Origin: Elsinoe ampelina
Lineage: Eukaryota
DNA: 64,000 nucleotides
Direction of reading: 5' to 3'
Assembly (NCBI GenBank): GCA_010093995.1
Contig: ML992502.1
Span: forward strand, 2,110,541 to 2,174,540
Part shown: piece by piece, positions 3,065 to 51,914 of the stretch
Layout: every line of letters begins with the position of its first letter
How positions within the stretch are numbered: the stretch's first letter is position 1
Program-made: the position numbers and the translations under genes
Notes under the pieces: generated by a model
Databases searched by the model: none
The model's input: only the letters and a program-made list of their open reading frames with translations
What the model was told of the DNA's origin: nothing

Positions 3065-6000
3065 CTACCTCCTCTCTTAAGCGTATTTACCCTTAAATAC
3101 TATTATATATTATTTATTAATCTATTTTAGCCTTAGCTTATCTATATAAGAGTCTAGATAGTTACGTAGCACATTAGCTACTCCTTTAAGATTGTTAATT
3201 AGCTACTAGGTAAGATTCTCTAGATAGCCTTTCTAGCTTATATAAGTAACTAGCTTTCCTTGCAGTAAGTATATATTAATTATGTTATTTACCTTATACT
3301 TCTCTTTACCGTTGACCTCTATCGGAGGTAGTTCTTTAAAGGCTTAGCCTAGTAAGGGGTTATTTAGGTGTTTAGTAAGTAGGTCGGCGTAAAACACTAG
3401 ATAAATCCTTTATAGAGAGGCTAGTAAATCGAGCTTATATACTAGTAGTAATTGTTTCTTAAGAATCTTATAGAGACTAACATACTTTAGTAGTAGCTTT
3501 AGATTGCCTTATAGCTAAAGGTTCTTCGTCGATAGCTAAACTAAATCGCTAGCCTCGAACTCTATTAGCTAGCGGTGCTTATTAGCTTGTTCTACTATCC
3601 GTAACTACGTAATAGCAAGGTTAGCCTTAGTAATAGCTAGTGCCTCTTCTAGTTGCTTAGCAAGTGTGCGGATGTCGACCTTATTTAGCTTAGCTCTTGT
3701 TAATAGTATATTAGAAGGGAGCTAAAAGCTTAGCCTTAGCTTATACTCTCTAGTAACCTTAAATAGCAATAACTTAGTACTCTCTAATAGGTTAACGTTA
3801 GCGGAGAATTCTGCTACTAGTAGAACAAGTGTCTAATTACTAAAGCGTATAGCGTATAAATAGATAACTCGCTTAAACTTGCAATTTATAACTTCTAATT
3901 AGCCCGTCACGAAAATCCTAAGCCTAGAAAGCTAGAACTACTAGAACTGCTAGAACTATAGAGTATTTCGCTATTATCGTGCTAGGAGATCTAGTAGTTC
4001 TAGCTTTTCTACGCCTTGCTAGGCCTACTAGACTCGCTAAGTGCCTACTTTAGAACTAGTTTGTCTACGGAAGTAGGTAATTTATAGACATAGTAGGCCT
4101 ATAAAGGTTCTAGGTTATAGGTTTCTATATCGATCTACTTTGTTAGCCGAATTAGATAGGAAGATTACTATATAAAATCTGTAAGACTAGCACTATATAA
4201 CTTAACTAACCTAGCTATTCTAACGTTAGTTATGTCTTTAGCTGCCTTGCTTCTTCTACCTCTTTAAGCTATTTCTCCTCCTACGCTGTATTCTAAAGCA
4301 TGTTATATGTATTAAAATCTGCTATGTTATTAATAAACTTAAGCGAGGAATCTTTAGGAGTATCTTTATCTACTAGTATAACGTGTATAATTAAGTGTAC
4401 TTACGTTAGGGAGTATATCCGCCTACCTCTAAGCGTCCTACCTCTCCCCGCTATAGTTAATACCTAGGGCTTAATTACTATTATACCGTGTATATAGTCT
4501 GCCTTACTATTATGCTTATAAGGCAGAAAAAGGTCTATAAGAACACCGGTGTACTATCGGCAGTAGAGTAGACTAGTACCCTTAATGTCCTCTACTGTTA
4601 GTATATAGCATAGCTTTGCTAGTAACTTACTATCGAAAGCTAGTAACTCTCTCGTCTACTCTTACGAACTAGGTGTTAAGCTAGATTACTATTCCTATAC
4701 CTAGAGCTAGTTATATCTCTAGTTTCCCGGCCGGTTCTACTAGTGCTTAGCGCAACGTATAAACACTTACTCCTTAGCGTTAGAATTGTTAGTATTATTG
4801 CTAGATAGCCGATACATTTATAAAGCTATATAGAGCTTTACTCGTAATAGTAGAGTCTACTTCGAGTCTACTTCGAGGCGGTCTAACCTATCTAAATTGC
4901 TAGTTTATACTTCTCTAATGTCTTAATTGTCTTAACGAATAGTTTAATAACACTTCTATAGGAAAACTACAATTATCTAGGACAGTAACGAGCCTTTTAG
5001 TATTAGAATAAGCCTCTCGAGCTCCTCTACTATTCGCTACTAATCTAGGCCCTTTAAAGGCGTAGACTAATCCGAACGAGCCTATCTAAACGCTATCTAC
5101 ACGTCGACTAGTATAACCGTTAGGGCGGGGTTAGCCCCTTTAGGTTTAGTACTATACTAGGGTTTAGGTTAGCCTCTAGCTAGCGTAGTGCCGCTAAGGG
5201 CTTAGTAGTACTAGCACTAGCTCCGCACCGTAGCTATAATAGCACTACACTAGCACTAGGTATAGGTTAGGTCGTATATATTCTAGACGTAGTATAGTAC
5301 TAGGTTAGGTTAGTAGATAAGTAGTGTAGTGCTATTAAGTCCTTAGCGTACCCTTACTAGCACCGCACTAGAGTTACTATTCTTATAGTAAATTCTTATA
5401 GCAACTGCTATGTCCTATAACTCTTGTTACTTTTCTACTCTAAATACTTAAAGTTATAGTAGGTAAAGGATACTAGAGAGAAGCAAAAGTTATTAATTAT
5501 TAACTCTTATATACAATTACGACCTAATAGTAATTTATAGAAGATTAACCTAATTAACATTATCTATATAACCCCTATAAGCCTATTTTACATACTTAGC
5601 TAGTAAGCCGTATACTACCTAGAACTAATACCTTATTATCTTATTATCTGCTTTATCCGGAGAATATTCTATTCTTAGTAAGTTTACCCTTATATAAATT
5701 ATAACCCTTAACTAGTAAACTAGAGTACTAAAGCTATTAGGCAGAGTCTAAGACTAGAATAATTAGTTCTAGGTAGTTTAGCCTTCCTACTAACTTATAG
5801 TACAGTTGCGGATTGCCTTAATGCTATTAGATTACTAGTTAATAGTAAGTATAAGGCCGTCTAGGGCCTTAATCTCTACCTAAAGGTTATTAATAAATTT
5901 ATAATAAGTAATATTAGCCTAACGAATAATAGAGAGGCAAGTAGTAGATATAGTAGTAGATTTGCTTAAATTCTAGTAACTATTAGTATAAGTTATACTA

Positions 6001-6199
6001 TAGCAATATAAAGGCATACTAGATAGTTGTTTAAATGTTCCTAAGGAGAGAAAGAAGTAACTTAGCTAATAATCTACTTATATCCCTTAGTATAACAATA
6101 GCTATTATTTAATAATAGCTATTGTTAGTATTGTTGTTTTTTTATAATAGACAATAGCTATTGTCTATATTGTCGTTCTTATAATAGGTAACGCTAGAT

Positions 6200-7489
6200 A
6201 TATATACCTTTTAGTTGCTATTTCTTCTTCTTCCTCTTAAATCTCTCTTTCTTGTCGTTTAATACCTCTTTCTATAATGCCTCCTTCTTATACTTAACTC
6301 TACCCTAACCTAGCAGATCTAATCCCCTTTTAGCCTTATAAGATAACTCCTAGCAACCGCACTAGGCCCTTATACCTACGTTAGTATAAAGCCTACATCT
6401 GCTATATAACTCTTATATATCTTAACTTTAATAACAACTACAAAATCTAAGCCGAACATATCTATAATAACTATAGAGGTTTAGTACTTTACTATAAAGC
6501 CTGCCGCACTTATAATACCCCTTATAACTTTATAGGTGTTCCTAATCTAATCTTTCTCTATAATCTAACGAATATTAGTATAATATCTTATAGACTAATA
6601 ACATCTTCGACCTAATTAACATATAGTACACTATTAATTGTCTTATTCTTAACAGAAGAGCAGATCTACTCTTACTCTTTGCTATACGCTATAATGTTAA
6701 ACATAAGTAAGAGAAGTTAAATTATATCGACGATAGTAATAATAGTGTTTCTTCTAACAACTAATCTAATTAAAGTAGCGTAGTTAAAGCGTTAGCGAGC
6801 TAACAGCTTTAGATAGTTATTAATGATATAGACTTATACTTTATAAAGACTTAATTACGTTACCTCTTCCCGTAAGTAACTAAAATTAACTATAATAACG
6901 GCATATATAAGCTCTTAAAGTAGAAGTATTTATATTACCTCCGGCTGCACTAGTAGTTGTATTACTACCCTAGGTAGTACTATTAGTACTAGTAGTAGAA
7001 GCACCTCCCTTGTTGTCCCTTTTACTATTAGTATTATTCTAGAAAGTAACTTAACTATTATTAGGCTTAAACCTAGTAAGGAAGTTAGAAGTATAATAAG
7101 GTAGATATTAGTAATAGCATAGAGAGTAGCGTTAGTAATAAGTTAGCTAAGGTCGTAGGTGCTATAGTAGGGGTAGTTATTAAGGTTAATAATAAGGAAA
7201 GTAGCGCGGAGATTAGTTATAGCTTTAGCCTTTATATTATAGTCGATCTATACAATTTTCTTATTAACGTTTTTGTAAGTGAATCTAGTATAACTAATAT
7301 AGATACGAATATAGTTATATTAAAGATACTAGCGGGCAAGGGAATAAGCTTCCTTAGGGTAGCTAACGAAGGAAGACTATTAGTATTAGTAGGTAGAATT
7401 ATATATAGTAATAGAGAAGGTATACGCGGAAGTACTTTAGAGTAGGTGTTAGTATAGATACTATAAGAGCGTTATTACTCGGAGGCCAT
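6200..7489 (-). pseudogene. Unknown cargo gene of the hAT element (RIP-degenerate)
   Basis: ATGGCCTCC start near 7489. The de-RIP reading is protein-like (SFVGYPKEAYSLARQYLQYDHIRIHIGHTGFTYKNVNEKIVWID..). No recognisable domain; ends approximate. Confidence 0.4.
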
Positions 7490-7534
7490 TAACTAGATAC
7501 GCTTAGAATACTAGCCTCTAACCTTAGTAACGTT

Positions 7535-9950
7535 ATATAGTAGATCTTTGTCCTTATTATGCCCTTCTTCCTCGTTAACCTTTTTGTTACTTAAACTATA
7601 AGTAGTAATATCTCTAAAGTTATTACTTATGCTATCTATCCTGCTATTAGTATTATTATTAGTAGTAGTAAAATTGTCCGTCTTAGCTAATTAAATATTT
7701 TAAAGATTATTTTCTACTAGCTTAGAGACTATAATTTGTCAGATTATCTATAGAAGTAGTCTATACCTTTAATTGCTAATAATATTCTTCGCTATATTAA
7801 AAACATATTTAATATCTACACCGGCGATTAGTATTATAAAAACATTATAAGTAATATAAGCTAGTTATAGGAATAAGTGCTTATTTTCTTTCTACTAAGA
7901 AAGAATATTAAATTCTAATATTTCCTATATAGGCGAAGTTCTAAGGTAATTCTCCCCTTCTATTCTTATTATATAGACGTCGCTCTACTCTTATAAAAGT
8001 ATATTATCTTAGCTAGATACTAGAGGTATAAAGCTACTCCCTGTGTTTAATAAGAAAGGCTTCTTAAACTAGTAAGTAATAGACAAGGCTAGTAGAGGAG
8101 GTAGGAGAGTAGTTTAAGAAGGGTAGGTATTATTATAGTAATTAAGATAGTTAAGGAACTATTTATAGTAAAGTAATTTAAAATATAGTTCCTATAAAGC
8201 ATGCTTATACGTACTAAGTTTCTAAGTTAGATCTAAGATTATACTATAATTAAACAAGAAACCTTAACCTCTACTTATTTACTTATAATACTTAGAAAGC
8301 TTAGTATAACTAGCTTTCGCTACATTTTACACAACTAATAGCTAGTCTAAGTTGTCGTCCTCTTCCTAAGTAGACTTAACTATATTAAGGAAGTCGAAAA
8401 GGGTATTATACATAAGCTATATATATTATACTAATAGCATATAAGACTAACTTAGCTAGTTAGTTATATCCTTAAAATTCTCTAGTATTTAGATAACAAT
8501 CTTTAGATATGTCTATTCGGCGTAGCTAAGGTAAAGACATTTTATATCTATATAATCGATAGATACTATGTCTTAATTAGCTAGCGCTTCGTTAGTTTAG
8601 GGCTTATATATAATTATAATCTCTGCGTTAAGCTGTTTATCGATAATTAGTTAAAGTTTAACAGCTCGCTTATATATATTATATGTTAAGTTCTAATAGG
8701 TATAAATGTCCTAAATAACTAAGAGTCGTTTACGAGGAGGTAAATATACTTAAAGGGATTTAAAGTATTAGTAGCGTTAAGGGGACTAGTTAATTATAAT
8801 ACAAATTACGTAGAGCTTTAAAATTAGTTAAAAAACTATAAGAAAGAACTATAAGAAATATAACTTACTTTATAGAGAGAATTCGGAACTAATAGAGTTA
8901 TTTAAATATTATAGAGATACTACTTCTTAAGCTTATTAGCTTTCTTATTGTCCTTAGTAGTTTCTAGCTATAGGGCTTAAATAATATCTTATATAACAAG
9001 ATTAATTATATAGGCTAGACATAGAATTATATTCTTAATAGAGAACTAGTATATACTCTTCTTCTTAAGACCTTATTATACTTTAGATTATAGAGTGTTA
9101 TTGTTACTTACATTATCTACTATAATAGTAAGAAGGCATATATTAATCTTTTTTTCATTTAGAACTCTTAGTAGTTCTATGCCGAGCGTAACTCTAGTAT
9201 ACCGTCTACTAATTAGTACAAAATCTAGTAGGTACTTATATACTTACTAGTTATTATTAATATAGTATACCTTTATAGCTATAAAACTTAGATAGTTATT
9301 CGTAGACTAGCTGTCTAGTATAATTAAAACTTTTGTCTAACTACTAAGATTAGTAAGAAGATTAGACTAAATGTCCTTATAGTGCTCTTTTAATAGCCCT
9401 AAGGCCTATGTCCGACCTAGAACATTAGTATATAGCTAGAGGAAATATATAAATTAGAGAAAGAAGGAATTATTAACTATTTAGAATAACTAATTACAAT
9501 TAATAAGGACCTTAATAAGCTCTTTTTTAAATTGTTCTAGAGAGAATTATAGTATATAAGATATAGTGCTAGTAGCGTTTACTTTTAATTATATTAGAGC
9601 TATCTAAGCTACTAATTATTTATAGCTAGGAGATTTTATATTCTAGTAGCTTTAGCGTCTAAGATGTTTTATTAGGTGTTTATTACTAATCAAGTTTATT
9701 ATTAGGTGTTATAAAGCTCTACTATAGTAGAGACAATACATAAGAGGTATTCTATTAGTAAGCTTAGTACCTTTATTAAAGTTGGCCTAAATAACTCTAT
9801 AGCGAGTTATAGAATTCTAGTTTAGTAGGTTTCGTATTCCGCTAACCCTTGATTTACTACCTATTAATGTTATAGGCTACTATGTTTTTTAGGCTTATAT
9901 AGCTAGCTATTCTTTAAGTAGTATATTTAGTTAGTAGAGTAGATAGCTAA
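7535..9950 (-). pseudogene. hAT transposase (RIP-degenerate, intron-containing)
   Basis: C-terminal dimerisation domain after de-RIP: DILSWWKENEHLFPQLARIARDVFAIPIAGVDVERVFNMAKDIIGDRRHRL (~7910-7755). Intron GTAAGT...CTAAT..AG at ~8868-8816. 5' end approximate. Confidence 0.85.
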
Positions 9951-10259
9951 CAATTTTAATAGTTTTATAGAATTAAGTAGAGAATAGATTGTCCTAGTAA
10001 TTAATATAGAACTCTTTAAGCTTGTAGGGGAGAGATAGTAGTAGCGTAACAACTTCTAAGAGTATCTATAGTTAAGGATTAACTAAGTCTTTATTAAACA
10101 CTAATATTTTAAGAGTAGAGATATAGAATATTACTAGCTATATAACAAGGAGTAGAAGACTATAAGAATGCTCTATAAAAATCTATTAGCTACTTTTAAT
10201 TTATAGATTAAAAAAATTTTAATAGTGTAGAACTAGAAAGCTACTAAAACTATAGTCTA

Positions 10260-11553
10260 ATTTTCCTAACTTAAGGTTAATCTATTTATTCTTATCTATA
10301 TTGTCCTTACTCTTACTCTTCTTATTATTATTACTACTCTTATCTATTGCCTTATTATTATCTTTATCCTAATTCTCTTTATTAGAATTGTTAAAGTCTC
10401 TAGTAGTAACTACTTTATAGTATATTTTAGCTACTTCCTTAGTCTCGTACTTGTCGGGTTCCTTATTAAAAAGGTCCTTAATCTTAGAGTTATTCTTAAC
10501 TTCTTCTTTAACCTTATTATTACTATACTTAATATAGTAATTATTAGATTTAAGTAAAATATTGTTATTCTTGTACTTAAATTCTAGTTTAGGAGTAGGT
10601 TTATATTTGCTTCGATAGATTAGTATATAACTATAAGAAATAACTATAAGAAATAATATATACCTAATTATTCGCTTATACTACTTAGAGTTTAGTAGGT
10701 GTTATATTCTTAATAAACTTCTTAAACTTAGCTTAGTTACTATTATTATAGTTACTAGTATTATATAGTAAGTTAATACTATTATAGTAGATCTTATAGG
10801 TCTATTTCTTAAGAATTCTACTAGTACTAAGAAGATGTTTTACTTAGCAATTCGAGAATATATTTGTCTCGTTATAGAGCGCCTTCTTTATATAATTAGT
10901 AAGGAGTTACTTATAGCAAAGAAGAGTATTAGCTTTATAGATACTACTCTATTTTTAGTAGATAGATATAAACTTATCCTCTAACTATTCCCCTATATAA
11001 AATTAGTAGATATACTATAAGAATATACTATAAGAAATATACTACTTTACTAGGTATAATAGCAAGTCTCTACTATCTTCTTATATACTATATTAAAGGT
11101 AGCTTCTTTTTCCTTATCGGACATTACTTAGAATTCTTTAGAGTTCTTAAGTTTTGCCTTAAGTATACGTTTTATAGAGCAATTAGCATTACTAGTAGTA
11201 GTAAGGGCTTTCTCCTCTATACTAGCTTATATAGCGTAATTTCTTTACTAAATAGCTTACTAGGTATTACTAAGCTATGCTTTCTACTATAGAATTCTAA
11301 GGGGGTAGCTATAGTAAGGAGTTCTAGTATTCTAAAAGCGATTTTTAATCTAGTATTTAATCTTATTAGCCTCGGAATTAAAACTCTATAGTCTAGTTAG
11401 TATTTAACTATAAGAAGCATCTATAAGAATTACTCCTATTATAGTAAGGATTACTTCCTCTTTCTTAGTTATTTCTTTAGTCTTAATTACTAGAGTATTA
11501 GTTATCTCTTCCTCTTTACTAAAGATTTACTAATCTATAGGATTAGTAGACAT
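10260..11553 (-). pseudogene. Unknown multi-exon cargo gene with acidic N- and C-terminal tracts, divergent from the H3-like gene
   Basis: ATGTCTACT start near 11553 (MSTNPMDQQIFGEEEEM..). Three intron-like gaps near 11430-11390, 11050-10995 and 10662-10610. Asp/Glu-rich tail at ~10380-10300 after de-RIP. Confidence 0.45.
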
Positions 11554-11929
11554 TATAGATTAAGAATTAGTAGTGATTTATAAGAGAAGGTAGAATATTA
11601 AGTATAACAGGGAGTAAGATATAAGATATAAGTTTTATAAGGAAAAGATAAAGAGAGAAGAATTTAGCATTTCTTATACATATAGTAAATAGAGTAGCTA
11701 GAAATATAAGTAATAATAGGTATTAATCCTATTGTTGTACTAATATAAAGTTGTTAATATTGTTAATATAAAGTTGTTATAGTAGAGAATAACAATACAA
11801 AATTCATATTCTATATACTATTATAAATTCCTTAATAAGGCTTAATATCTTACTCTTAGTATTTTTGCCTTACTCTTCTTTACCTTTATAAACAAATTTT
11901 AACAATTAATTTGACAAATTTATATAGCT

Positions 11930-12511
11930 ATAGCTTATAAGAAGCAAGTAACACCTCTAAAAAGGGTAAAGCTAAGGAAGTAAGGCGCTAAGAAAACTGC
12001 TACTAAAAAGCCTACTATAGGTAGTTACGTAACAAAATTTAGACTAGTATTAACTAGATAAATTTGCTAGGTAAAGAGCTATAGGTTTAAGCTAGACAGT
12101 TAGTTTCTTATAGTAAATTCTTATAGTCTTATATCTAATATAGTATAGCTATTACTCTCTAAGAGATTTGTCGCTACTAGAAGACAACTAAACTTCTTAT
12201 ATATAAGCTTCTCTTCTCCTATGTTGTTTATAACATTACGTAAGATATTAAGTTAACACTTATAAGTAGAGATTTACGCTTTACACTAGATGCTATTAAG
12301 TATCTCTAGAAAGTAAGTAAGGTAATACTAGTAGAATATTTTAAAGGTATATTAACTATGTATTTAGAATATATAATACCTTATACTAATAACTATAGTA
12401 GACTATAATCTTAATACTATCTATGCTAAGTATTATACTATTATATAGAAAGACTCTTAGCTTACTAAGAAATATTATAACAAGTACTACTTACTTACTT
12501 TCTCTAATTAG
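11930..12511 (+). pseudogene. Histone H3-like (CenH3-like features) gene, RIP-inactivated, 2-3 introns
   Basis: De-RIP: MARKKQV..PKR.KPRKQGAKKTA.KKP / VK.HRFKPG / [36 protein letters not shown](+5 aa)DLRFTPDAIE.LQEASEA.LVEYFE / D.NL.AIHAKR.TIMQKDSQLA. Colinear with the H3 histone fold. GT..AG introns at ~12099-12148 and ~12348-12401. Confidence 0.9.
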
Positions 12512-15233
12512 TAAGACCTCTCCTCTATAATACTATAAGAATAGACTATAAGAAATAGGCAGGTTTATTTTTACATAGACTAGACTATTAAATTTCCTTT
12601 CTATAGACTTATTACAATACTAAAGTATAGTATAGTAGCTATAGTTACCTTAAAGCCTAACTAAGGCGTAGTACTATAACGTAGTATAATACTAGGATTT
12701 AACTCCGGTACTAATTTAGTATAGTGCTATTATAGTGTAGTATAGCGCTATTATAGTATAGTACTATTCTTACTTAACTACGGTGTAGTACTAGTGCTAG
12801 TGTAGCTCGGCGTAGTACTAGTACTAGTGCTAATATAGTAGAGTGTAGAGCTAGTGCTATTTAGTTTAGTACCGGGTGCTAACCTACTAAGAACAGCTTT
12901 ACACTAGTACTAGGGTCGGCCTTTAGCCGCCCTAACCCCGCCCTAATAGTTACACTAACGTCGATAGCCTAAGTTACTATAATAGAAGCTTCTAGCGCCT
13001 CTCTTCTATTAGCTAGAGTTAATATATATAGTATAAAGCTGCTATCGAAGGCTAATTTAAGGCTAAGTAGACGATAATTATATACTATAACTTAGTCCTT
13101 CTATCTGTTCTTCTTGTTTATTAGCTTAAATAGGTTCTTAATAAACTTAATATAGTTATACTTAGCATAATTAGAATCGAGGTTTAGGGCTACACTAAAG
13201 CGTTAGATAGCTTACACGAAATGCGTTATAGCGTGCTACTTTAGGAAGTTAAAATAATCTACTTTGTCTCTAGTTTAACTACGATATAGATAGTAAATTT
13301 CCTTATATTTATTTAGATAGAAAAGGGCGAGATCTATATACCTTAGCGTGTCTTTATTATAGCTCTTATACATTACAAGTAGTATAAAGTCTACTAATGC
13401 CCTTAGATAATATATAGCTTTCTCTATACATATCTTAGCTAGGAGAGGAATAAATACTAGTAGAAGTTAACGGAGTAAGCTTTTTTACTCCTTTCTAGTC
13501 TATTGCTTAACAGTAGAGAAGTAGCTAAACCTCCGTAGGCCTAGATACGCTAGAATGCCTATAAAACGGCGATTAATAATATTAAGCACACGTTCGGTAG
13601 AGAAGCGCTTATGTCTAGTAATCCTAGCCTACTCCGTAGCTGCCTTAAAGTAGCGTATTTCTAGGGTAGGTATTCTGTCCTATAGTATTAAGGTTGTCTA
13701 TCCGACGACGTATATAAGTACGCCCTTTAAGAGCTAATAGAGGATATCTAGCACTATAGCCTCGTAGATGTTAGTCTACTTATAGCCCTATACGAAGTAA
13801 TCGACATTATATACTAAATCTACACTTGCTATTACGCTCTATTACTATATTTAGATTTGCCTCCGCGTTAATATATAAGTATATAGCTCTACTCTCGCCT
13901 TAAGGTCTTCCCTTAGTTCTAGCTTAATTAGGCAAGTCGTACAATAGTAAAGAGACTTAACGCTAGTAATCTTAACCTACTCGGTATAATCTGTTATAAT
14001 AGCTACTATAATTAGGAAATATCTTCTAGTACTACTGTCCGAATAGACAATATTAACACCTTTACCTCTAACAATTTGCTTAATCGGATCGAAGATTCTC
14101 TTTATATACTTATAATAAACAGTTGCCTTCTATATTATATCGCTATTCTTTATAATAGGTAAGAGCCTTACTAGAAGCTAGCTAGGCTAGGTATTTCTAT
14201 TATAGATATATAAAGGCACATTTCCGATAGAAAGGTAGATAGTATAAGTAGTAAGGTCTCCTTAATAATTAGTTACCTAAGTTTAATCGCTTACGAGGAT
14301 AAGTAGTATAATAGTAGCACTATTAATATTTATACGCTCTTAAGCTTCCTACTACTAGTCTCCTAAAGCTAGGTTATTAAAAATTCACCTAGAGAATTTG
14401 TCTTCTACTACCTCTATAAACGTTTAAAACAGGCTATATACTATATCGTCCTTAAAGCTATAGTGCTAAAGAAAGAATTATATTATATCTATTACATTTA
14501 TATAGTAGAGAGTATAGCCTATAGCTCCTCGATTTATAGGTAGTTAGAATAAAGTCTTTATCTATGCTTCTATCTCCGAATAGTTATCTAATTTGTCTAT
14601 TTAACTACGAAGTTTGTCTAATATCTTAAAACTAAGCTAATCGGTTAAAGGCTAAATATATAAGTTATATAGGAGATAGGTAATAGTATTCTTACTAATC
14701 TTCTCTTCGAAGAGCTATTAAGTAAACATAGTATCTATTTCGTTTCTAAAAACATAGCTATAGTCTAGATCGTCTACGAACTAGACATCTATCTTAGCGG
14801 ACCTAGTCCTATAAGGGATTAGTGTTAGGAGTGTTTATATATGCTCTTTATAGTGCTACCTATACTTATAGTGCCTCCTCTACTCTTTAACTAGTGGCCT
14901 TCTCGTACGTCTATATAAAGTAGACTAACCTTCCTAAAGAAGATAGCTAACTCTTCCTTATTAAGTTCGCTAATAAAATAGAAAGGGCAAAGGCCGAGAT
15001 ATGCCCTTCTATCTCCTTCTTTTTCTCTCTTACGTAGTTCTCTCTGTCGATGCTATACTAGGGGCTAATAGTAGCCTTATCTACACGTGTAAAGCCTCTA
15101 TCTACTTTAGCGTTGCTCTTATTATTAAGGTAGACACCTAGATAGAGAGAGTCTTATACTACTCTTTCTTTACTTTGTTTATCTATGCCTTCTATCTATA
15201 TACCTTCTTCGCTATTTAAAGATATCTCCTCCT

Positions 15234-26691: not shown

Positions 26692-26879
26692 GTCTTTATT
26701 GTTTTAGGAGAAGAGCCGTAAGCGGTTAGAAAATCTATATAAAAGCTAGCTCGGCTACCGAAATAGATAGTGACCTACGTATAGCTATTAGCTATAAATT
26801 TAAAAGGTATATAATAGAATATATCTATTTTGTTATATAAAGTAGACAGTAAAGTAAGTATAGAGTAAGCGTCTAAGTT

Positions 26880-29800: not shown

Positions 29801-30157
29801 TTATCTACCTCGATTTATATATATAAGGATAGACGTAGTTCCTAATAACGTTTAGTATATACCTCTTTCTAATTCTATAAGCCCTTATCTAGGTTAGCTA
29901 GGATATATCTTGCTTTTTCTAGACAAAGAGAAGAGTAACTAGGGTAGCTATCTCCCCTTTCTAGCCTCTAACCCCTCGCCTATATAGGATAGTACTAATA
30001 AGACAGGTTACTAATATAGGGATATAGCTCCTCCTAAGTTCTCTAGCGTTATCGAGGCTATTTAGGTACACGAGGAACTACTATAAAGCCTTATATAGAG
30101 GCTTATTAACTTAGAATAGCGCCTGTATATCGTAGTAGAGAGTAGCACTTATTACTC
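26880..30157. pseudogene. Several unidentified RIP-degenerate gene-like segments inside the Plavaka-like element
   Basis: Protein-like de-RIP readings with starts ATGCCGAGT (~27845) and ATGCCGAGA (~29094) on +, and a minus-strand segment cut by Gypsy A3. No family recognised. Confidence 0.35.
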
Positions 30158-30162
30158 CGAAG

Positions 30163-33100
30163 TGATATAAGATAGATACGAACTAGATTTAGTTAGGATC
30201 TAGTTTAGATTAGTTACGTAATCTCGGTATTATAGCCTAGGCTTCCGGCCGCTTTGCTCTCGATATTATATATGCTTTATATACTAGCTTTTCTTCTTCT
30301 TCTTCTAAGTCTTAATATCTTAACGAATAGACGTAATTAACCTCTTATCTTACTAGTTGTAATTACTATATCGAGACTTTATAACGACCGTAACTAAGCG
30401 ATAGAGCTATTAAATTATCTAGTTATTCTACTACTTATATAACTACTAATAACTATCACTTACGAAGAATTAAAGAATTAAAGAAGAAGCTATTATAACT
30501 ATAGTTCCCGCGTATACTATAATAGATCCTTACTACTACTATATAGGTTAATACCGCGAACCTCGAAGATATAAGAAAAAGATAATAAGTCGAGTTATAG
30601 ATAACTCTTAAAGGAAGTAAGCTACTAGCTAAAAATTTTAATATTCCCTTTATTACGTATTAACGTTTTACACTGTTTTATTTACAACTAACTACGCTAA
30701 GTATAGCTCGATCTAACTATAGCGACGAAGAGCGCTACTAAAGTAAGCTACCTTAACCTATTTCTAATAATAATAACGCTCCTATCTACTCTCTCTACTA
30801 TAATCTTTTTACCCTCTCTAACGCTATACTCCTTAAGAAGCTATAGGAAGAGCATAGTATATAGGCACTAAGAGACGTATTTAACTATATTAAGTCCTTC
30901 TATAATAAGTAGACTACGTAGGTAAAAGGCACTTATACTAACGCTCTCTACTATTACTATAAGTTAGATACTACTTAGGCCTAGCTCGGCAACCTCTAAT
31001 CCGAACTAGACGTATCTTAGTCCTATGCCGATAGTGTTACTACCTAAGCTACTCGCTACCTTGACAAAATCTAAGAGCTTAAGGCTAAGGTAAACTAACT
31101 AAAAAACGAGATAGGGCGTAGTATACTAGCCCTTTCTATACGCGGCTTTACCTTATTAGAAAAGATACTAGACCTTGCCGTCTTTAGCATAGGTACACTA
31201 GAGTAGTTCGAGGTCTTTAAGCACTAGATAAGGAACAAAATACGCGCTAATATAGATCGTTTCTCTATAAGAGATACCTAGTTTACCTATCTATACTTAC
31301 GTCTCTCTAGAGAAGCCTATACCCTTGTTATAGACTTAGCTAGTAATAACGTTATTAGCGTCGAAGAGGTCCTTACTCTCCTAGCCTAGCGCTTCGAGGA
31401 TTCTAACTATAGAGCTACTATACGTACTTAGTTCGCTAACCTCTTTTAGTATAATAGTACATTTAACTCCTTTATTAGCAAGTTTAATAAGTATGCCCTT
31501 TACGCTAAGATTGCTAAAGAGGAGTAGCTATACTAGATCTACTAGAAGATATTTAATAAGCTACGTAATACTCTAGTTAACTATAACACTAACAACCTTA
31601 CTACTTTTATTACTAAGGCCTACGCTACTAACTATAATATCCAATAGAATAACCTTATTACTAAGCGCACTTAGGCTTTACGTTCTATGCTAGCTATAAG
31701 CTACGCCGCTACTATACCTACTTATATATCTTATTCTACCTTTACGCCTATAGCTCCGCCTACCTTTCGCTCTATTACTAGAGGTACTCCGTAGCCTTTC
31801 TATCTAGCTCTAGTACTTACCTATTATATATGTGGTAAGCCTAGACATATCTCTACTAAGTGTATAGCTAGCGCCTTAGAGAAGGCTACTTACGCCGCTA
31901 TACGCCTTATACGTATTAGCGCTATAGAGGAGATATAGTAGCTTTAGGATTACTTAGCCGAATTAAGTAACTAGGTCGACACTAGTTCGGCCTACGAACT
32001 AGATCTAGTTTAGCCTTAGTTTAACCCCGAAATAGACTACGAGTCTACTAGCTACTCTAGCTAAAGAAACAAGTAGCTAGAGAACAAGTTCTATTCTCTA
32101 GCGGAATAAGAGTAATTCGAGATAGATCCGGAGGTATATAGTTACTAAATAGCGTCGTTAGCTACTACATCCCTGCTATTATAACTCCTATTACTATTTA
32201 CGACCCTTATAACTACTCTTATACTATTACACTTTAAGCCTTTATTAACACTAGCGCGCTTATTAGCGCTATAGTTAATTATAACGTTCTTAATAAGCTA
32301 AAGAGCTTCGGCTACCTCGTAGTACTAGCTAGCTCTATTTAGCTTTAAGCCTATAATAGTGTTTTAATAGAGCAAGTTATATATAGTATTCCCCTTACTA
32401 CTACTGTTTCTAGTAAGCTAAATAACCTTACTACCTTTCGTATTATAGATATTAGCTAATTCGATATTATTCTTGGCCTTAGCTAGCTTAAGGCTAATAG
32501 AGCCACTATCGACTATAAGTATATCTAAGTTACGTACAAAGAAGAGTTTTTACTAGTCGTTATTAAGTAGGAGCTGCTATAGCTAATTAAAAGGCTAGAA
32601 TCTAGATCTAAGCCTAGCTTAGATCTAGAAATCTAGCTCGGCAAAATCCCTGTTCTAGTTTAGAACTAGTTCGGTTCTAGTTTAGCTTACTAACTAAATT
32701 CTAGCTTAGCTACTAAGTTAGGACAAACTAGACTATATCGGCTACTAGCTCTTAGGTTAAACTTTAAGCTAAATTAGAGAGAGTTTAAGCTAATCTCCTA
32801 TAGCACTTAGTTAATACATAAGTTCTCCTATATACCTACTTACGTAAGTAATACTAAACAAGAAAAGCCGACTATCGCCTTTATTAGCGTAGCTGCCTTT
32901 ATATTAGTAGCTAAATACTAAAAGAATAAGGTGTTTATAATCTTAGTAAAGAATATTAAAGACTACTACTAGATAGCTTCTAAGCTAGAACTAGATTCTA
33001 TAGTAGTTCTCCTAGAGGAGTTATAGAAGTTTACTAACGTCTTCTCTAAAGAATAATCTAATACGCTCCCTTAGCATCGGCTAGATTTTAACAACTATAT

Positions 33101-36100
33101 TACACTTAAAGATAGCGCTAAGCTACTACGTATAGAGCCTTTACGCTACCTATCGCTAGAAGAACTTAATATAGTAGAACAATTTATCTAAGAATATCTT
33201 AATAAAGGCTTTATTATACTAAGTTCCGCTAGCTATTCCTTACCTATTCTCTTTATTTATAAGCTAGGTAGAGAACTCTATCTCTACGTTAACTACTATA
33301 GCCTTAATAAGGTAACTAAGCGAGATGTCTATCCTCTACCCCTTATTAAAGAAACACTTACGCGCGTAAGTAAGGCTAAATAGTTTAGTAAGATTAACAT
33401 CTATTAAGTCTTCTACTATCTCTATAACTCTATTAACAGTAAAGATCTTACTATGTTCTCTATATATATAGGTAACTTTAAGTAGCTAGTAATACTATTC
33501 GGCCTTACTAATACCTCTATAGTCTAGTAGAGGTTTATAAATTACAACTTTGTTAATATACTAGAGCGCTTTATATCGATCTACCTAGATAATATTCTTA
33601 TTTATATAAACGGCTTCTACTAAGAGCACGCTAAGTATATTAAGCTAGTACTCTAGAGGCTCTACGAATTAGGCCTAAACGCTAATATTAAGAAGAGTAA
33701 GTTCTACCTAACAGAGGTAAAGTATCTTAGTATTATTATTAGCTAAGATAGAGTTAAAATAGATCTAAAGAAGATAGAAGCTATATAAGCCTAGAAATAG
33801 CTAGCTTCTAGTAACACTACTTAGGTAAGAAGCTTTATTAGTTTCTATAGCTACTATCACTACTTTATTAAGGGATTTAGCACTATTACTAAGCTGTTAA
33901 ACGACCTACTTAAGAAGGATACTACGCTATAGAACGACAAATACACTGCTACTTTTAACTATATAAAGTACACTATTATAAGTGTGTCTATCCTTACGTA
34001 TTTCGATTGCTTAAAGTAGATAGTCCTCGAGACTAACGCTTCTAATACTACTACTACGGGAATTCTATTATAATATAATAAGTCTAATATTCTCTAGCCT
34101 ATTACCTTTTTTAGTAAGTCTATAAACAAAGCTAAGCGTAACTATGCTATCTACGACAAGGAGCTACTAGCTATTATCTAAGCCTTTAAAGAGTAGGCCT
34201 CTAAGCTTATAAGCACTTAATCTAATAAGGCTATTTACGTCCTTACTAACTACTAATCCTTAATACACTTTATAAAGACTTAGAAGCTATTACGCTACTA
34301 AGTATACTAGGCTCTCTACCTTACGTAGTTTAACTTTAAAATTATATATAGGCCTAGCGTAGCTAATAGCAAAGCCGACGCCCTTATAAGGAGAAATAGA
34401 GATATACTACGCTCGAAGGAGAACTCTAACTTACGCTAGACGCTATTACTATATAAAGTGCTCAATTAGTGTATTATTAACGAACTAAATCTAGGCTATA
34501 TCTAAACTAGATTTGTAACTTAAGCTAAACTAAGAACTAGTTCGTTATCTAGTTTACTACCTATACTACTATCTAGTTTAGCTTCCGAACTAGGACCTAG
34601 TTTAGGAACTAGTTCGCCGCCTATTTCGGCTTACGAGCTAAGCACCTATATAGCACCTATTTCGACCTTAGGAGAGTAAACTTTACTATTGTTTAACGAA
34701 GTAGCTAAAGCTAACTTATAAGACTCTAACTTTGAAATAGTTCGCGGCATCTACTATATAATAGGGGCCTTCCTAAAGAGGAAATAGCTACTATTAACTA
34801 ATGTTACAATCGAGAAGGAAATACTATAGGCCGATAGCTAATTAATCGTGCCTTTCTCTATAGCTATAAAAGTTATCTAAGAGGTTTACACATTAAAAGA
34901 CTATATGTATAAGGGAGCTACTAAGACGTCTACTATAATTAAAACTACCTTCTATATTTCTAGATATAATAGTAACATAAAGAGGTTTATCGCTAACTAC
35001 TATAACTATAAATAGTCAAAGGCTCGCTATAGTCTACTAGCTAGTCTCCTCTCTCTATTACCTATTCCGGTAAGACTATAGTAATATATTACTATAGACT
35101 TTGTTACTAGTCTGCCCTTAGTAGATAGTTACAACGTAGTGCTCTATGTCGTTAACTACCTATCTAAGAAACAGCACTTAATCCTATACTTCTCTAGAGA
35201 AGGTAGCACTTTAGCGTTTAAGACTGCTAAGCTATTATTCTTCTACTTGTAGAAACTATATAGTCTACTAGATAGTATCACCTCGGATTATAGCTCTTAG
35301 TTCGTTAGTAACGTATAAAAGAGGCTCTACTAAATCTTAAAGATTACTACTAAACTGTCTACTATAGGGCATCTATAAATAGACAGCTAATTAGAGGTTA
35401 TAAATTGTAAGTTTAAGCGAGTTATTCGTTCGTACGCTATACACTTTAGCAATTAGACACTTGTTCTACTAGTTATAGAATTCTCCGCTAATGTTAATCT
35501 ATTAGAGAGTACTAAGTTGTTACTATTTAAGGTTACTAGAGAGTATAAGCTAAGGCTAAGCTTCTAGCTCTCTTCTAACGCACCGTTAACAAGAGCTAAG
35601 CTAAATAAGGTCGACATCCGCGTACTTACTAAGCAACTAGAAGAGGCACTAGCTATTACTAAGGCTAACCTTGCTATTACGTAGTTACGGATAGTAAAAT
35701 AAGCTAATAAGCACCGCTAGCTAATAGAGTTCAAGGCTAGCGATTTAGTTTAGCTATCGACGAAGAACCTCTAGCTATAAGGCAATCTAAAGCTACTACT
35801 AAAGCATGTTAGTCCCTATAAGATCCTTAAGAAACAATTACTACTAGTATATAAGCTTAATTTACTAGCCTCTCTATAAAGGATTTACTTAGTGTTTTAC
35901 GCTAACCTACTTACTAAATACCCGAATAACCCCTTACTAGGCTAAGCCTTTAAAGAACTACCTCCGATAGAGGTCGATAGTAAAGAGAAGTATAAGGTAG
36001 ACGATATAATTAATATACACTTACTATAAGGAAAGCTAGTTACTTATATAAGCTAGAAAGGCTATCCGGAGAATCTTACCTAGTAGCTAATTAACAATCT

Positions 36101-36427
36101 TAAAGGAGTAGCTAATATGCTACGTAACTATCTAGACTCTTATATAGATAAGCTAAGACCGAAATAGATTAATAAATAATGTATAATAGCGTTTAAGGGC
36201 AAATACGCTTAAGAGAGAAAGTAGTAATATAAGATAGATACGAACTAGATTTAGTTAGGATCTAGTTTAGATTAGTTACGTAATCTTAGTATCGTAGCCT
36301 AGGCTTCCGGCTGCTCTACCCTTAATATTACGCGTGCTTTGTATATTAGCTTTTCTTCTTCTTCTTCTAAGTCTTAATATCTTAACGAATAGACATAATT
36401 AACCTCTTGTCTTACTAGTCGTAATTA
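30163..36427 (+). mobile_element. Gypsy family A, copy A3 (6265 bp, full length, RIP-mutated)
   Basis: LTRs 30163-30365 and 36225-36427. TSD CGAAG at 30158-30162 and 36428-36432. CGKPGHISTKC knuckle (~31831-31863), AFIDTGA protease (~32238), IYLDDIL RT (~33579), GHPQTDGQSE integrase (~35367), YEVDDI..WKGY..TW chromodomain (~35990-36085), PPT before the 3' LTR. Confidence 0.95.
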
Positions 36428-36432
36428 CGAAG

Positions 36433-39400
36433 AACAACTAGTATATTATAATAGAGTTCGCTAGCTGTATAATCTAACACCGCTAGTGCACTACTACTCT
36501 GTCTATACGTTAGAGAAGTATTTAGTATAGTACTAGGGAAGTAGAGGATAGGCTAGAGGTTAACTAAGAGTAGGTTAAGGAATAGTATAAGATTAAGCTC
36601 TATAAACTAGATATCTTACCTAGATCTAGTTCGGCTCTAGCGTCTAACGTCCTAGATAAGCTTATAAACGGGCTCCTATATAGTACTAAGTCCTAGAATC
36701 GAGTAGAAGAGTTAATATAGAAATAAGTATCTTATAATGTAGTATAGCCTTCTCCTATTTACTATAAAACGCACTATTATAGTCCGATACTATCTAAGCT
36801 ATTAGTTAATGTCGCTAAAGCCTATACTATTTTAAAGAAGTAAGGAGACAACTAGTAATTATAGTAGCATTAGTAATATAATTGCCCTTATGCTATTACG
36901 CTAAGACTTAATCTATTTCGTAAGGCAAAGTAAATACGACAAGCTAGTTAGACTAGAGAGAGAGCACGACAGCCTTATAGTATAAGATTAGCTAGACGTA
37001 ACTACTATCCCTATATATGGATTTAATAACTCTATTAATTAGAGAGTTACTAAAATTATTTATAGAATAAGCTATTATACTTTTGTCTACTATTAAACAC
37101 TGCTAATAACTATAAGTAATTATATATAACTATCTTAACTTACTAATGTGCGTATCCTACTAATCTAACTACTATAGCTAGATATTTAGTTATATCTAGC
37201 AAAAGACTAAGCAACGACGAAGAAGAAGATAAGAGCTTTTATAATTTAACCTTAATAGGTAGTTTATAATAGGGAGAAACGTAAGCTTATCGCTGTCTTT
37301 CGAAAGCCTATAGCTAATAGTATAAGAATAATAAGTACCTATAGCTACAAACGGCAACGACCTACTACCGATAGTAACATCGACTCTCGTCTTTAAACCG
37401 AAAGCCTCTATAATCTATAGGTAGAAGATTTAGGGGAGATAGATATTAACACTAAGTTTTAAATCTCTACTAGTATACGAGACCTTACTATTAACACTAT
37501 TGCTCTCTTAAATACAGTTACTATAACTAGAGTAATAAGGTATAAGAATATAAACCTAATAGTAGACGAAGAGTAGTACAAGTGTAGTATTATCTACTAC
37601 TAGTAATAGACTAGGACTTTATATATAGAGACTAACTCTAAGAAGAAATATCTATTAGTCCTTTCCTTAAAAGTTATAGAAAAAGTAAGTCTAGTTTATA
37701 CTAAGGTATAGTAGCTAAATAACGAAGTAGATTAGGAAAGCATTATACAAATATTATAATAGCACTATAGACCGTATTAGGAGAGCTATAGAAGTATAGC
37801 TAGGGAGTTAAATACGGAGCTTAACTAAGACAATAGAATAGGCAAAGGAGTAGCTAGAGAATAGTAGCTATAAATATAAGAACGAGAAAGTAGTAAGTAC
37901 ATTCTCTACTTACCTTAATACTAGGTTATTTAGTAGATTAGAATAGAAGATATTTAGGTAGCCTCCTCGTTACTGCCTTCGGTACTACTTACTATAGATA
38001 TTATAGTCTTATACTACCTCTAAGAACAAGGTAGTACTTTATCTCTCCTTCTGTTTTTCTTATTATATTACTCTTAGTAACTATCTATAATGTCTTATTT
38101 ATTATATCCTAGAGATTCTCCGGCTTAAATAAAGATCTCTAGCTAAGATATAATTGCTATAACTTTATTAATCTATATAAGCTCTTCTGCTAAATCGACT
38201 ATGTCTTTTGTTTATAATATAAAGGTCAAAGATTAAGGCTTATATAGAAGCTAGGTCGAAGAATAAGTAATCTAGCCGACAGTCGATATAACCTGTCTTA
38301 GAGGATAATTATCGAGAGTAATATTACCTTATACGCTAATATACTTAATAGACTAGAAGATAATAGCGAAGAAGATACTTCTATACCGTCTTAGACAGGG
38401 CTAAAGAGGGTAAAATACACAACTAACGGAATAGATAAGACAGGGCACGTATTAATAACCCTTTAATATAAGTAACAATATAGAAGGTATATATATCGAC
38501 TTATATAATAATAGTGCCTTATATAATATCTTAACCTACTTCGCTTCCTAGACAAGCTAGTTCGTATATCTACTTCTTATCTTAAAATGCTAAGTAGTAT
38601 AGGTAGTTCGTCTAGCATATAGATAGGCCTACCTATAACAATAAGCACCCCGTACTAATCTACTTCGCTACTAATTGATTCTAGTTTGTATTACTATCCT
38701 CCGACAATATAAGCGCTAAGTAATTATAGAATTACTATCTAATAAGAAGTATAGGGAGATAGGTTTAAGTAACCTTAGACTAGCTAGTAAGTTCTATACC
38801 GAGTTTATAGCCCCTAAACTACGCTTGCTTATTAGAATAGCCTTAGTTACAAGCACGGCTACTCCTATAGTAGCTATAGATAAAGAGTAAAGACAACGTA
38901 GAAGACATATAGACGGTGAATTAGAGGTAATCTGCCGTATAGTAATAAGTATAATATTAAGAAAGTTATAGACTACTATCTTAACTATAGTCTTAAAGCG
39001 ACTTAGCCCCGTAGATAATCGCGTGCTACTATAGTATAAGGTCGAGAGAGATAGAGGTAGAGGAGATTAGATAGTTAAATAGAGTAATAAGGTGTTTAAT
39101 AAGCTAGTCTTTAAGGAGCTAGTACGCCTATAACGCCTCGTAGGGAAGAGTAAGCTATTTATGTCTATAGAGCGTATTAGCGATAATATATACCGCTCCC
39201 TAATTAACAATTAATGCTCTATATTATCTATCTACGTCTAAGACTGTCTAATATAGAACAACCTCTACACTAAACGTGTTAAGTCTATAAAATACTAAGG
39301 CGAAGTAGATAATTAGCCTTACGAAGTAGGCAGCTACATATTACGCTAGTACTAGCTATAATATAGAATCTATATCGGCTTATAAAGTAGACCTATATTT
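36433..39400. pseudogene. Further unidentified RIP-degenerate gene-like segments of the Plavaka-like element
   Basis: Unique RIP-mutated sequence between A3 and the right TIR with protein-like de-RIP readings. No family recognised. Confidence 0.3.
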
Positions 39401-41766
39401 ATGTCGCTATAATAGCCAACCTAGTTCGGTTAGTATAGTCTGCCTTTTATAACTTTATTTACACTTTTATAGCTCTTAATTACTATACGTAGCAATATAG
39501 ATAGTAATAACAAGGACTACTAGCAAGACTAGCGAGCGCTAGGGCGATTAGCGAGACTAGCGATTGCTAGGGCAATTAGTAAGACTAGTAATAGTTAAGA
39601 CATAGAGCAAGCTAGAAATACTAGAAACGCTAGAACTACTAGCGATTACTAGTAGTTCTAGCGTTTCTACGCCCTAGAATTTTCGTAACGCTGTCTATTT
39701 ATAGATGCCCTATAGTAGACAGTTTAGTAGTAATCTTTAAGATTTAGTAGAGCCTCTTCTACACGTTGCTAACGAACTAAGAGCTATAATCCGAGGTGAT
39801 ACTATCTAGTAGACTATATAGTTTCTACACGTAGAAGAATAATAGCTTAGTAGTCTTAAACGCTAAAGTACTACCTTCTCTAGAGAAGTATAGGATTAAG
39901 TACTATTCCTTAGATAGGTAGTTAACAACATAGAGTACTACGTTATAACTATCTACTAAGAGTAGACTAGTAATAAAGTCTATAGTAATATGTTGCTATA
40001 GTCTTACCGGAATAGGCAATAGAGAGAGGAGACTAGCTAGTAGGCCGTAGCGAGCCTTTGACTATTTATAGTTATAGTAGTTAGTAATAAACCTCTTTAC
40101 ATTACTATTGTATCTAGGAATATAGAAGGTAGTTTTAATTATAGTAGACATCTTAGTAGCTCCCCTATATACGTAGTCTTTTAATGTGTAAACCCCTTAG
40201 ATAACTTTTATAGCTATAGAGAAAGGCACGATTAATTAGCTATCGGCCTATAGTATTCTCTTCTTAATTATAACATTAGTCGATAGTAGCTATTTCCTCT
40301 TTAGGAAGGCCCCTATTATATAGTAAATGCCGCAAACTGTTTTAAAGTTAGAGTCTTATAAGTTAGCTTTAGCTACTTTATTAAACAATAGTAAAGTTTG
40401 CTCTCCTAAGGTCGAAATAGGTGCTATATAGGTGCCTAGCTTATAAGCCGAAATAGGCGGCGAACTAGTTCCTAAACTAGGTCCTAGTTCGGAAGCTAAA
40501 CTAGATAGTAGTATAGGTAGTAAACTAGATAATGAACTAGTTCTTAGTTTAGCTTAAGTTACAAATCTAGTTCGGATACGGCCTAGATTTAGTTCGTTAA
40601 TAATGCACTAATCGAGCACTTTATATAGTAATAGCGTCTAGCATAAGTTAAGGTCCTCCTTCGAGCGTAGTATGTCTCTATTCCTCCTTATAAGAGCGTT
40701 AGCTTTACCGTTAGCTACGCTAGGCCTATATATAATTTTAAAGTTAAACTACGTAAGGTAAAGAGCCTAGCGTACTTAGCGGCGTAATAGCTTCTAAGTC
40801 TTTATAAAGTGCATTAAGGATTAGTAGTTAATAAGGACATAGATAGCCTTATCGGATTAAGTACTTATAAGCTTAGAGGCCTACTCTTTAAAGGCTTAGA
40901 CGATAGCTAGTAGCTCCTTGTCGTAGATAGCGTAGTTATACTTAGCTTTGTTTATAGACTTACTAAAAAAGGTAATAGGCTAGAGAATGTTAGACTTATT
41001 ATATTATAATAGAATTCCCGCAGTAGTAGTGTTAGAAGCGTTAGTCTTAAGAACTATCTACTTTAAGTAATTAAAATACGTAAGGATAGACACACTTATA
41101 ATAGTGTACTTTATACAGTTAAAGGTAGTAGTGTATTTATCGTTCTATAGCGTAGTATCCTTCTTAAGCAGGTCGTTTAATAGCTTAGCGATAGTACTAA
41201 ATCCCTTAATAAAGTAGTAATAGTAGCTATAGAAACTAATAAAGCTTCTTACCTAAGTAGTATTACTAGGAGCTAGCTATTTCTAGGCTTATATAGCTTC
41301 TATCTTCTTTAGATCTATTTTAACTTTATCTTAGCTAATAATAATACTAAGATACTTTACCTCTGTTAGGTAGAACTTACTCTTCTTAATATTAGTATTT
41401 AGGCCTAATTCGTAGAGCCTCTAGAGCACTAGCTTAATATACTTAGCATGCTCTTAGTAGAAGCCGTTCGTGTAGATAAGGATATTATCTAGGTAGATCG
41501 ACACGAAGCGCTTTAGTATATTAACGAAGTTGTAATTTATAAACCTCTACTAGACTATAGAGGCATTAGTAAGGCCGAATAGCATTACTAGCTACTTAAA
41601 GTTACCTATACGTGTAGAGAATATAGTAAGATCTTTACTATCGATAGAGTTATAGAGATAGTAGAAGGCTTAATAGATGTTAATCTTACTAAACTATTTA
41701 GCCTTACTTACGCGCGTAAGTGTTTCTTTAATAAGGGGTAGAGGATAGATGTCTCGCTTAGTTACC

Positions 41767-51711: not shown

Positions 51712-51914
51712 TAATTACAACTAGTAAGATAAGAGGTTAATTATGTCTATTTATTAAGATATTAAGACTTAGAAGAAGAAGAAGAAAAGCTAGTATATAA
51801 AGCACATATAATATCGAGGGTAGAGTAGCTAGAAGCCTAGGCTATAATACTAAGATTACGTAACTAATCTAAACTAGATCCTAACTAAATCTAGTTTATA
51901 TCTATCTCGCATTA
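51712..51914 (-). repeat. 5' LTR of Gypsy A1
   Basis: Matches the other family A LTRs and is followed by TSD GAAAA. Confidence 0.93.

Follow-up and report, generated by a model that had tools for sequence, protein, structure and literature searches.

We analyzed a 64,000-nucleotide stretch of the genome of Elsinoe ampelina (positions 2,110,541 to 2,174,540 of contig ML992502.1, assembly GCA_010093995.1; this whole stretch is referred to as the window, with position 1 its first letter) and found that positions 3905-39690 are best read as a single dead copy of an autonomous DNA transposon of the Plavaka group from an ascomycete, with a DDE transposase of CMC/EnSpm-related type; we put the probability of this reading at roughly 0.85. 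The element has two matching ends, splits a Gypsy long terminal repeat (LTR) retrotransposon cleanly, encodes a Plavaka transposase, holds four nested insertions, and contains passenger sequences that are homologous to, and colinear with, those of intact relatives. Followed in the orientation of the transposase, from right to left in the window, the layout is: the right terminal inverted repeat (TIR), about 4.5 kb of unrecognized sequence, a possible gene of unknown kind (sense), a gene that we refer to as the third gene (antisense), a divergent ATPase gene of SNF2/Rad54-like type (sense), the Plavaka transposase (sense), approximately 380 bp, and the left TIR. An earlier note on this DNA, made from the letters alone (the original prediction), had proposed a cargo transposon of Plavaka/CACTA type at these positions, and its individual claims are taken up below with the results that bear on them.

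Element ends and insertion site

The left TIR (3905-3950, plus strand) begins at 3905 with CGTCACGAAAATCCTAAG, and the right TIR (39646-39690, minus strand), which runs up to 39690, begins with CGTTACGAAAATTCTAGG when read as its reverse complement. We scanned the degenerate 18-mer CGTYACGAAAATYCTARG, allowing at most two mismatches, over the 64-kb window and obtained two matches, both at the element ends (0.03 expected; two matches were seen in none of 100 shuffles). If two small indels are allowed, the inverted repeat is about 45 nucleotides long. Subterminal repeats of CTAGAAC type run on from the left TIR to approximately 4110 and, on the other side, begin at approximately 39485. When the motifs CTAGAA[AC]/[GT]TTCTAG are counted in bins of 250 bp, the two richest bins are the two end bins, with 5 and 4 motifs as compared with a window mean of 0.23 per bin. 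Both the paired ends and the subterminal repeats had been part of the original prediction, and both withstood these counts. The termini read CGT..ACG, and because repeat-induced point mutation (RIP) cannot create C or G, the C at terminal position 1 is original.

The retrotransposon into which the element is inserted spans 2862-51914, with the target-site duplication (TSD) GAAAA, as judged by self-comparison, and is interrupted twice: at 3903/39690 by the Plavaka stretch and at 41772-48781 by another LTR element. Its left part (minus strand) therefore ends at 3903, and it resumes at 39690-41771 and again at 48782-51914. The two parts that flank the element, 2862-3903 and 39690-41771, align colinearly with two further copies of this Gypsy, nested in the element itself (copies B and C, below), which are unbroken and in which the uninterrupted target site reads AATTAGCTGTCT; comparison with these copies gives a TSD of 2 bp. 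The insertion point lies about 120 codons past the integrase zinc-binding matches of the Gypsy reading frame (Integrase_H2C2, 23.1 bits, and zf-H2C2, 23.4 bits, both just below their cut-offs) and, by our reading of the Gypsy translation, falls within the integrase core. The clean split of the integrase region and the 2-bp TSD had both been predicted, and the unbroken copies uphold both, with an ambiguity in the register of the TSD to which we return below. Positions 3905-39690 are confirmed as one insertion, bounded by TIRs, that interrupts a Gypsy within its integrase region.

The transposase

The transposase frame was read on the minus strand from position 15233, with stop codons entered as X. 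This translation matches PF18759 (Plavaka) with 104.4 bits (cut-off 26.3, E 9.3e-30), in agreement with the predicted Plavaka identity. A word-based protein search with the RIP-mutated transposase gave no match, and a full HMMER search was therefore needed to find its relatives: against 1.84 billion representatives, phmmer returned 998 sequences at E ≤ 1e-3, 321 at ≤ 1e-10 and 28 at ≤ 1e-30, the best of them with an E value of 2.3e-102 and 39% identity. PF18759 is present in all 17 relatives scanned. The names on four of the ten relative clusters checked are Polychaeton citri, Aureobasidium pullulans, Podosphaera aphanis and Ciborinia camelliae; all four of these named species among the best relatives are Pezizomycotina, judged by name, and the two closest, Polychaeton citri and Aureobasidium pullulans, are Dothideomycetes (lineages checked).

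The relatives align to 14770-12890 and then, with their C-terminal 150-220 residues, to 4904-4284, and the transposase gene is therefore split; a hAT transposon sits between the two parts. The main part, with the DDE core (12890-14770, minus strand), is delimited by PF18759, by phmmer and by alignment with intact relatives, and the RIP-degraded C-terminal part (4284-4904, minus strand) by tblastn with three queries (residues 650-868 of relative P0004, 851-934 of relative P0002, and 732-888 of an open reading frame [ORF] of metagenome locus L001, described below). Without the hAT transposon the homology spans about 3.3 kb, or 3.8 kb if extended to 15233, which is close to the predicted figure of about 3.5 kb. 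After its removal approximately 810 nucleotides (4905-5379 plus 12555-12890) are left between the two matches, where the relatives have 21-220 residues; these nucleotides may represent an intron, a variable linker or one more small insertion.

Motifs that are recognizable in comparison with intact relatives include SDxT, GDL..YLSIGN, DY.E, C(2)C and H(3)H, and the window's YCTTC and HAITH align with the HCTxC and HAxTH of those relatives. The frame read from 15233 has 60 stops in 778 codons, and although both D positions of the DDE triad are kept, the column of the catalytic E reads K, a change of RIP type. The stops, the E-to-K change and the split by the hAT transposon together mean that this copy is dead; they are no argument against its membership in Plavaka. 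By its sequence, then, the transposase is a Plavaka transposase destroyed by RIP. Among distant Plavaka proteins, three have predicted fusions (P0047, P0085 and P0084, with a Ulp1 protease domain [PF02902], DUF913 or DUF6830), and these fused domains may be further passengers or the result of merged gene models.

The first 52 kb of the window are AT-rich repeat DNA (GC content 0.23-0.38) with extreme RIP indices, TA/AT being 1.8-2.3 and (CA+TG)/(AC+GT) 0.21-0.32, as compared with 0.63 and 1.23, respectively, in the GC-rich genes at 52.5-61.5 kb. These indices, together with the Pezizomycotina relatives of the transposase, support an ascomycete host.

Intact relatives

A scan of metagenome contigs with the aligned sequences of the closest intact transposases gave five loci (L001-L005), two of them informative. 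Locus L004 has, upstream of the transposase and on the same strand, an ORF of 1370 residues with a match to Helicase_C (34.2 bits, cut-off 23.5), whose closest solved structure is that of Rad54 (1z3i, E 7e-4). Further upstream lie an antisense frame of 334 residues, the third gene, and, in sense orientation, a frame of 258 residues or more, and we found no Pfam family in either of these two frames. In locus L001 an ORF that matches Helicase_C lies upstream of an intact transposase ORF of 934 residues, and the helicase-transposase pair is also found in L003. The transposases of L004 and L001 are 31-34% identical to the remnant in the window; unlike the window copy, these loci are not RIP-mutated (GC content 0.51-0.53) and their ORFs are open. 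Word-based searches with the SNF2-like protein and the third gene of L004 each recovered only the query itself, and no deep profiles of these passengers could therefore be built. A search of the PDB with the third gene returned nothing below E 0.4, and an AlphaFold2 model of it, made with no alignment, had a mean predicted local distance difference test score of 35 and was unusable.

Passenger genes of the window copy

Remnants of these passengers were sought by comparing the proteins of L001, L003 and L004 with six-frame translations of the passenger region of the window. For this comparison we used phmmer, hmmsearch and a RIP-tolerant alignment. In the last of these, a codon receives the score of its best possible codon before RIP, scores are recentered to a negative expected score, and calibration is by shuffling of codons; the transposase, run as a positive control, reached 1157, as compared with 97 for the highest shuffle. 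A remnant of the third gene lies antisense to the transposase: 27944-28672 (plus strand) is homologous to L004:1016-2017(-) with a RIP-tolerant score of 123.1 (maximum 68.2, reached by 0 of 200 shuffles), and with phmmer the same L004 gene matches at 27953-28231 (plus strand) with 26.2 bits as compared with 4.5 for the best of 40 shuffles.

The remnant of a SNF2/Rad54-like ATPase gene, the one SNF2-like remnant found in the window copy, is placed at 22126-24944 (minus strand) by colinear hidden Markov model matches and by RIP-tolerant alignment. Its helicase C lobe (22440-22126, minus strand) scores 76.9 against the L001 ORF (maximum 63.1, 0 of 200 shuffles), and phmmer with the L001 helicase frame gives 7.5 bits at 22168-22515 (minus strand; shuffle maximum 2.5). 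A profile of the three SNF2-like proteins matches (hmmsearch) at two places on the same strand, in colinear order: positions 1200-1280 of the profile at 22410-22168 (full score 4.6, shuffle maximum -0.2), and positions 579-635 at 24353-24186, where the domain scores 3.4 bits and the frame -3.9, below the shuffle maximum of -0.2. Within the latter match, at about 24353-24186, lies the stretch AYEIGLSKT, which we take to be a Walker A motif, as we take NEFY to be DExH. The density of stops per frame hints at a long minus-strand frame at 22.0-24.8 kb, a measure that discriminates poorly even for the transposase.

A possible remnant of a further gene lies at 29122-29751 (minus strand), where L004:28-801(+) scores 62.6 (maximum 58.5, 0 of 200 shuffles) as a match picked from 52 tests. 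The order and strands of the third gene, the SNF2-like gene and the transposase are the same in L004 as in the window, strand and order of the remnants agree with L004 throughout, and the distance from the third-gene match to motif I of the ATPase is 3156 nucleotides in the window (with a foldback insertion removed) as compared with 3171 in L004. We conclude from these likenesses that the window copy probably carried the same module as the intact relatives, with the ATPase N lobe and the fourth gene weakly supported as parts of it. The predicted multi-gene unit in an ascomycete is borne out to the extent of a SNF2-like remnant and two remnants of unknown genes in conserved order.

The rest of the element yielded less. 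The internal sequence next to the right end (36433-39480) has no recognized content, with no accepted match to Pfam in six frames or to the L004 ORFs; a match of L004:2256-2675 at about 37.2 kb (z = 6.1, with a high baseline) was rejected as non-colinear and probably compositional. Pfam found no family on the plus strand of 3905-12600, and a six-frame self-comparison for paralogues returned only the palindrome at 26258-26691.

Nested insertions and other copies

Four insertions are nested in the element, as had been predicted: two Gypsy copies, a 7.2-kb hAT transposon in the transposase gene, and a 444-bp foldback. Gypsy copy B (15234-21466, minus strand) and Gypsy copy C (30163-36427, plus strand, inverted relative to B) were delimited by self-comparison and have 5-bp TSDs: CTCCT at 15229-15233 and 21467-21471 for B, and CGAAG at 30158-30162 and 36428-36432 for C. 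The hAT transposon (5380-12554) has TIRs TTCTTATAGT..ATTCTTATAG and, on the minus strand at about 7726-7960, a hAT dimerization domain (PF05699, 23.5 bits, cut-off 21.4); a clean 8-bp TSD was not seen at 5380-12554. It is also rich in subterminal repeats of ACTATAAGAA type (self-comparison families D6, I11 and I12). The foldback (26248-26691), which resembles a miniature inverted-repeat transposable element (MITE), is an almost complete palindrome (26258-26691) with ends TAGGGTGG and arms that are 83% complementary, flanked by GTCTTTA repeats. Subtraction gives a net length of 35786 - 6238 - 6270 - ~7180 - 444 = ~15.65 kb, and the predicted ~15.0 kb is revised to this figure.

Contigs from two sequencing runs of one sample were aligned to 21000-40500 at 80% likeness. 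Contigs that are 8-11% diverged overlap exact ones at 23004-23406 and 23499-23814, one contig joins 30157 to 36428 (a copy without Gypsy C), and one joins 26247 to 26692 (a copy without the 444-bp foldback). It follows from the diverged and the skipping contigs that the interior of the element is repeated in the genome and that the Gypsy C and foldback insertions are secondary. One further contig swaps 642 nucleotides at 21681-22324, just upstream of the transposase, for 561 other letters, and another copy of the element therefore differs there by replacement. Summed contig depth, which is not a copy number and which we did not use as one, steps about 2.5-fold at the foldback (approximately 260-360 at 21.6-26.2 kb and 690-905 at 26.9-39.2 kb); the step could reflect deletion derivatives in which the right part survives, or divergence that is uneven among the copies. 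In the foldback bin itself the summed depth is about 4900, as compared with 300-800 in neighboring bins, and the foldback may be a high-copy MITE.

Two observations concern the surroundings of the element. The LTR element nested in the host Gypsy at 41772-48781 has LTRs of 460 bp (41774-42233 and 48326-48785) that are 93% identical, and directly after the repeat block (window positions 52000-62000) lies a GC-rich island (0.47-0.58), apparently genic and without RIP mutation.

Points against and alternative readings

Several results weigh against reading the whole stretch as one Plavaka element with its passengers. With regard to the passengers, Pfam (stops as X) found no family on either strand of 21474-30160 and 36429-39690, which cover the roughly 11.5 kb upstream of the transposase, or in the best frame of 21602-24899 at a maximum E value of 10, and phmmer against the PDB with 22502-24599 (minus strand) returned two chance matches only, with E of about 0.6. 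Two RIP-tolerant matches to the SNF2-like gene are weak, namely its N part with the L003 query (24944-24219, minus strand; score 83.3, reached by 5 of 200 shuffles) and the SNF2-like ORF with the L004 query (24716-23427, minus strand; score 93.2, reached by 1 of 60 shuffles), and in L004 itself the SNF2-rel_dom match of the 1370-residue ORF (23.1 bits) falls just under its cut-off of 24.9. About 4.5 kb adjoining the right end has no recognized content. The TIR motif is absent from L001-L005; the contigs of L004 and L001 end before either TIR, and no relative contig spans both ends. Finally, the register of the TSD is ambiguous between GC/GC and CC/CT (left copy within 3902-3904). The first option is exact (3902-3903 and 39690-39691) and makes the ends asymmetric by two bases; the second (3903-3904 and 39691-39692) gives the symmetric CGT..ACG ends at 3905-39690 and requires one T/C difference, which RIP does not explain.

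A tentative alternative, to which we give appreciable weight though less than an even chance, is that the element is not a family of its own, and that it belongs to a larger Plavaka family that carries a SNF2 gene, as a copy that is shorter, has internal deletions or differs in its nested insertions. Subtracting the two Gypsy copies only does leave a span of 23.3 kb; this figure still counts the hAT transposon and the foldback, however, both of which are independent insertions.

It is improbable that the stretch is an accidental composite, with ends from two neighboring or partial Plavaka copies and, between them, unrelated DNA (the SNF2-like remnant included) that moved once or never. The window does hold a single copy, and contig depth does differ between 21.6-26.2 kb and 26.9-39.2 kb, although depth is not a copy number; against this, the clean break in the host Gypsy and its 2-bp duplication are what one insertion event would leave, the order, strands and spacing of third gene, SNF2-like gene and transposase recur in the independent and intact L004, and L001 and L003 again show the pair of helicase and transposase.

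The hallmarks of CACTA/EnSpm elements are 5'-CACTA termini and a 3-bp TSD, and that of Starships is a tyrosine-recombinase captain (DUF3435) at one end. We consider a canonical CACTA/EnSpm element or a Starship-type giant element very unlikely in place of Plavaka: Plavaka transposases are indeed related to EnSpm (in the part of PMC12730594 that treats them) and the element is large and has passenger genes, but its termini are CGT..ACG, its TSD is 2 bp and not 3 bp, PF18759 is the sole transposase family matched, and no DUF3435, tyrosine-recombinase or other Pfam family was found in the frames scanned (for 12600-15233, the transposase frame only).

Relation to known Plavaka elements

The sections of Kojima 2025 (PMC12730594) that bear on these elements describe PlavakaA, with a 2-bp TSD and TGT..ACA ends, and PlavakaB, with a 2-3-bp TSD and CATCA..TGATG ends, both reconstructed from Agaricomycotina only; some PlavakaB carry TET/JBP. 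As far as those sections go, the window element shares with PlavakaA and PlavakaB a DDE transposase of PF18759 type with C(2)C and H(3-4)H motifs, TIRs and a 2-bp TSD (PMC12730594). Some PlavakaB have a passenger directed at chromatin or DNA modification (PMC12730594), and the passengers of the window element, a putative SNF2/Rad54-like ATPase accompanied by unknown genes, may be comparable. It differs from both in its ascomycete host and in its CGT..ACG termini (PMC12730594), which are one transition away from the PlavakaA terminus, and we found no TET/JBP domain in it (Pfam, frames scanned).

An ascomycete Plavaka is on record from the Chinese white truffle (Tuber), where the passage on these elements gives 2-bp TSDs and the TIR motif 5'-CATAC-3' (PMC12581995). 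The window element has in common with it an ascomycete host, TIRs and a 2-bp TSD; the Tuber element differs in its CATAC TIR and in belonging to a host of the Pezizomycetes, whereas the relatives here are Dothideomycete-like, and accessory genes go unmentioned in that passage (PMC12581995). The giant Plavaka of red algae (17-19 kb) has, in the preprint text on it, three accessory genes, PAG1-3, which encode a methylase/SET protein, a ParB/2-oxoglutarate (2OG)-oxygenase protein and one unknown protein (bioRxiv 10.1101/2025.02.11.637652). It resembles the window element in being large and in having several accessory genes beside the transposase, genes that in the algae are directed at DNA or chromatin and in the window element may be; unlike the window element, it belongs to another host kingdom and has no SNF2-like gene among the accessory genes described in that text (10.1101/2025.02.11.637652).

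A Plavaka in an ascomycete, a 2-bp TSD and a multi-gene Plavaka are, accordingly, already in print. The original prediction had suggested that the ends (CGT start, 2-bp TSD) may be poorly documented: this does not hold for the 2-bp TSD, which is given in the passages of PMC12730594 and PMC12581995 cited above, and does hold for CGT..ACG, which is unlike the TGT..ACA, CATCA..TGATG and CATAC of those passages. A CGT..ACG Plavaka terminus was not found in the literature searched, the supplementary sequence sets of PMC12730594 apart, and neither was a SNF2-like Plavaka passenger, the co-mention of Plavaka and SNF2 in that literature being unrelated.

Proposed history and significance

The anatomy of the stretch suggests that the element entered the integrase region of the host Gypsy by cut-and-paste transposition with duplication of a 2-bp target. 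Two Gypsy copies, the hAT transposon and the small foldback would have arrived in it later, and RIP would afterwards have introduced C-to-T and G-to-A changes throughout. In living copies the transposase would recognize the CGT..ACG TIRs and the CTAGAAC subterminal repeats, and the SNF2-like ATPase and its companions would be accessory genes that travel with the element. These genes may act on the chromatin of the donor or target site, opening or remodeling it, or may work against silencing, the kind of role that has been proposed in other Plavaka elements for TET/JBP and further passengers aimed at chromatin.

On balance, and by a small measure, we favor the view that ascomycetes, at least Dothideomycete-like ones, harbor an undescribed Plavaka lineage, with CGT..ACG termini, a 2-bp TSD and a conserved accessory module of a highly divergent SNF2/Rad54-like ATPase and two genes that match no family, and that intact, possibly active copies of it reside in environmental fungi (L004 and L001). 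Passengers that modify chromatin or DNA are rare on transposons, with TET/JBP (basidiomycete), PAG (red-algal Plavaka) and VANC (VANDAL) as the examples, and they offer a route to understanding how mobile DNA evades silencing by its host. A SNF2-type remodeler alongside a Plavaka transposase would be a new kind of passenger, and RIP-active ascomycetes would join the hosts of fully delimited Plavaka elements. The value of the dead copy lies mainly in the precisely bounded template that it provides (both ends, the empty site and the gene order) for finding and testing intact relatives. If the proposed lineage is real, then it would represent a transposon with a chromatin motor of its own, possibly opening chromatin for excision or integration, or resisting silencing.

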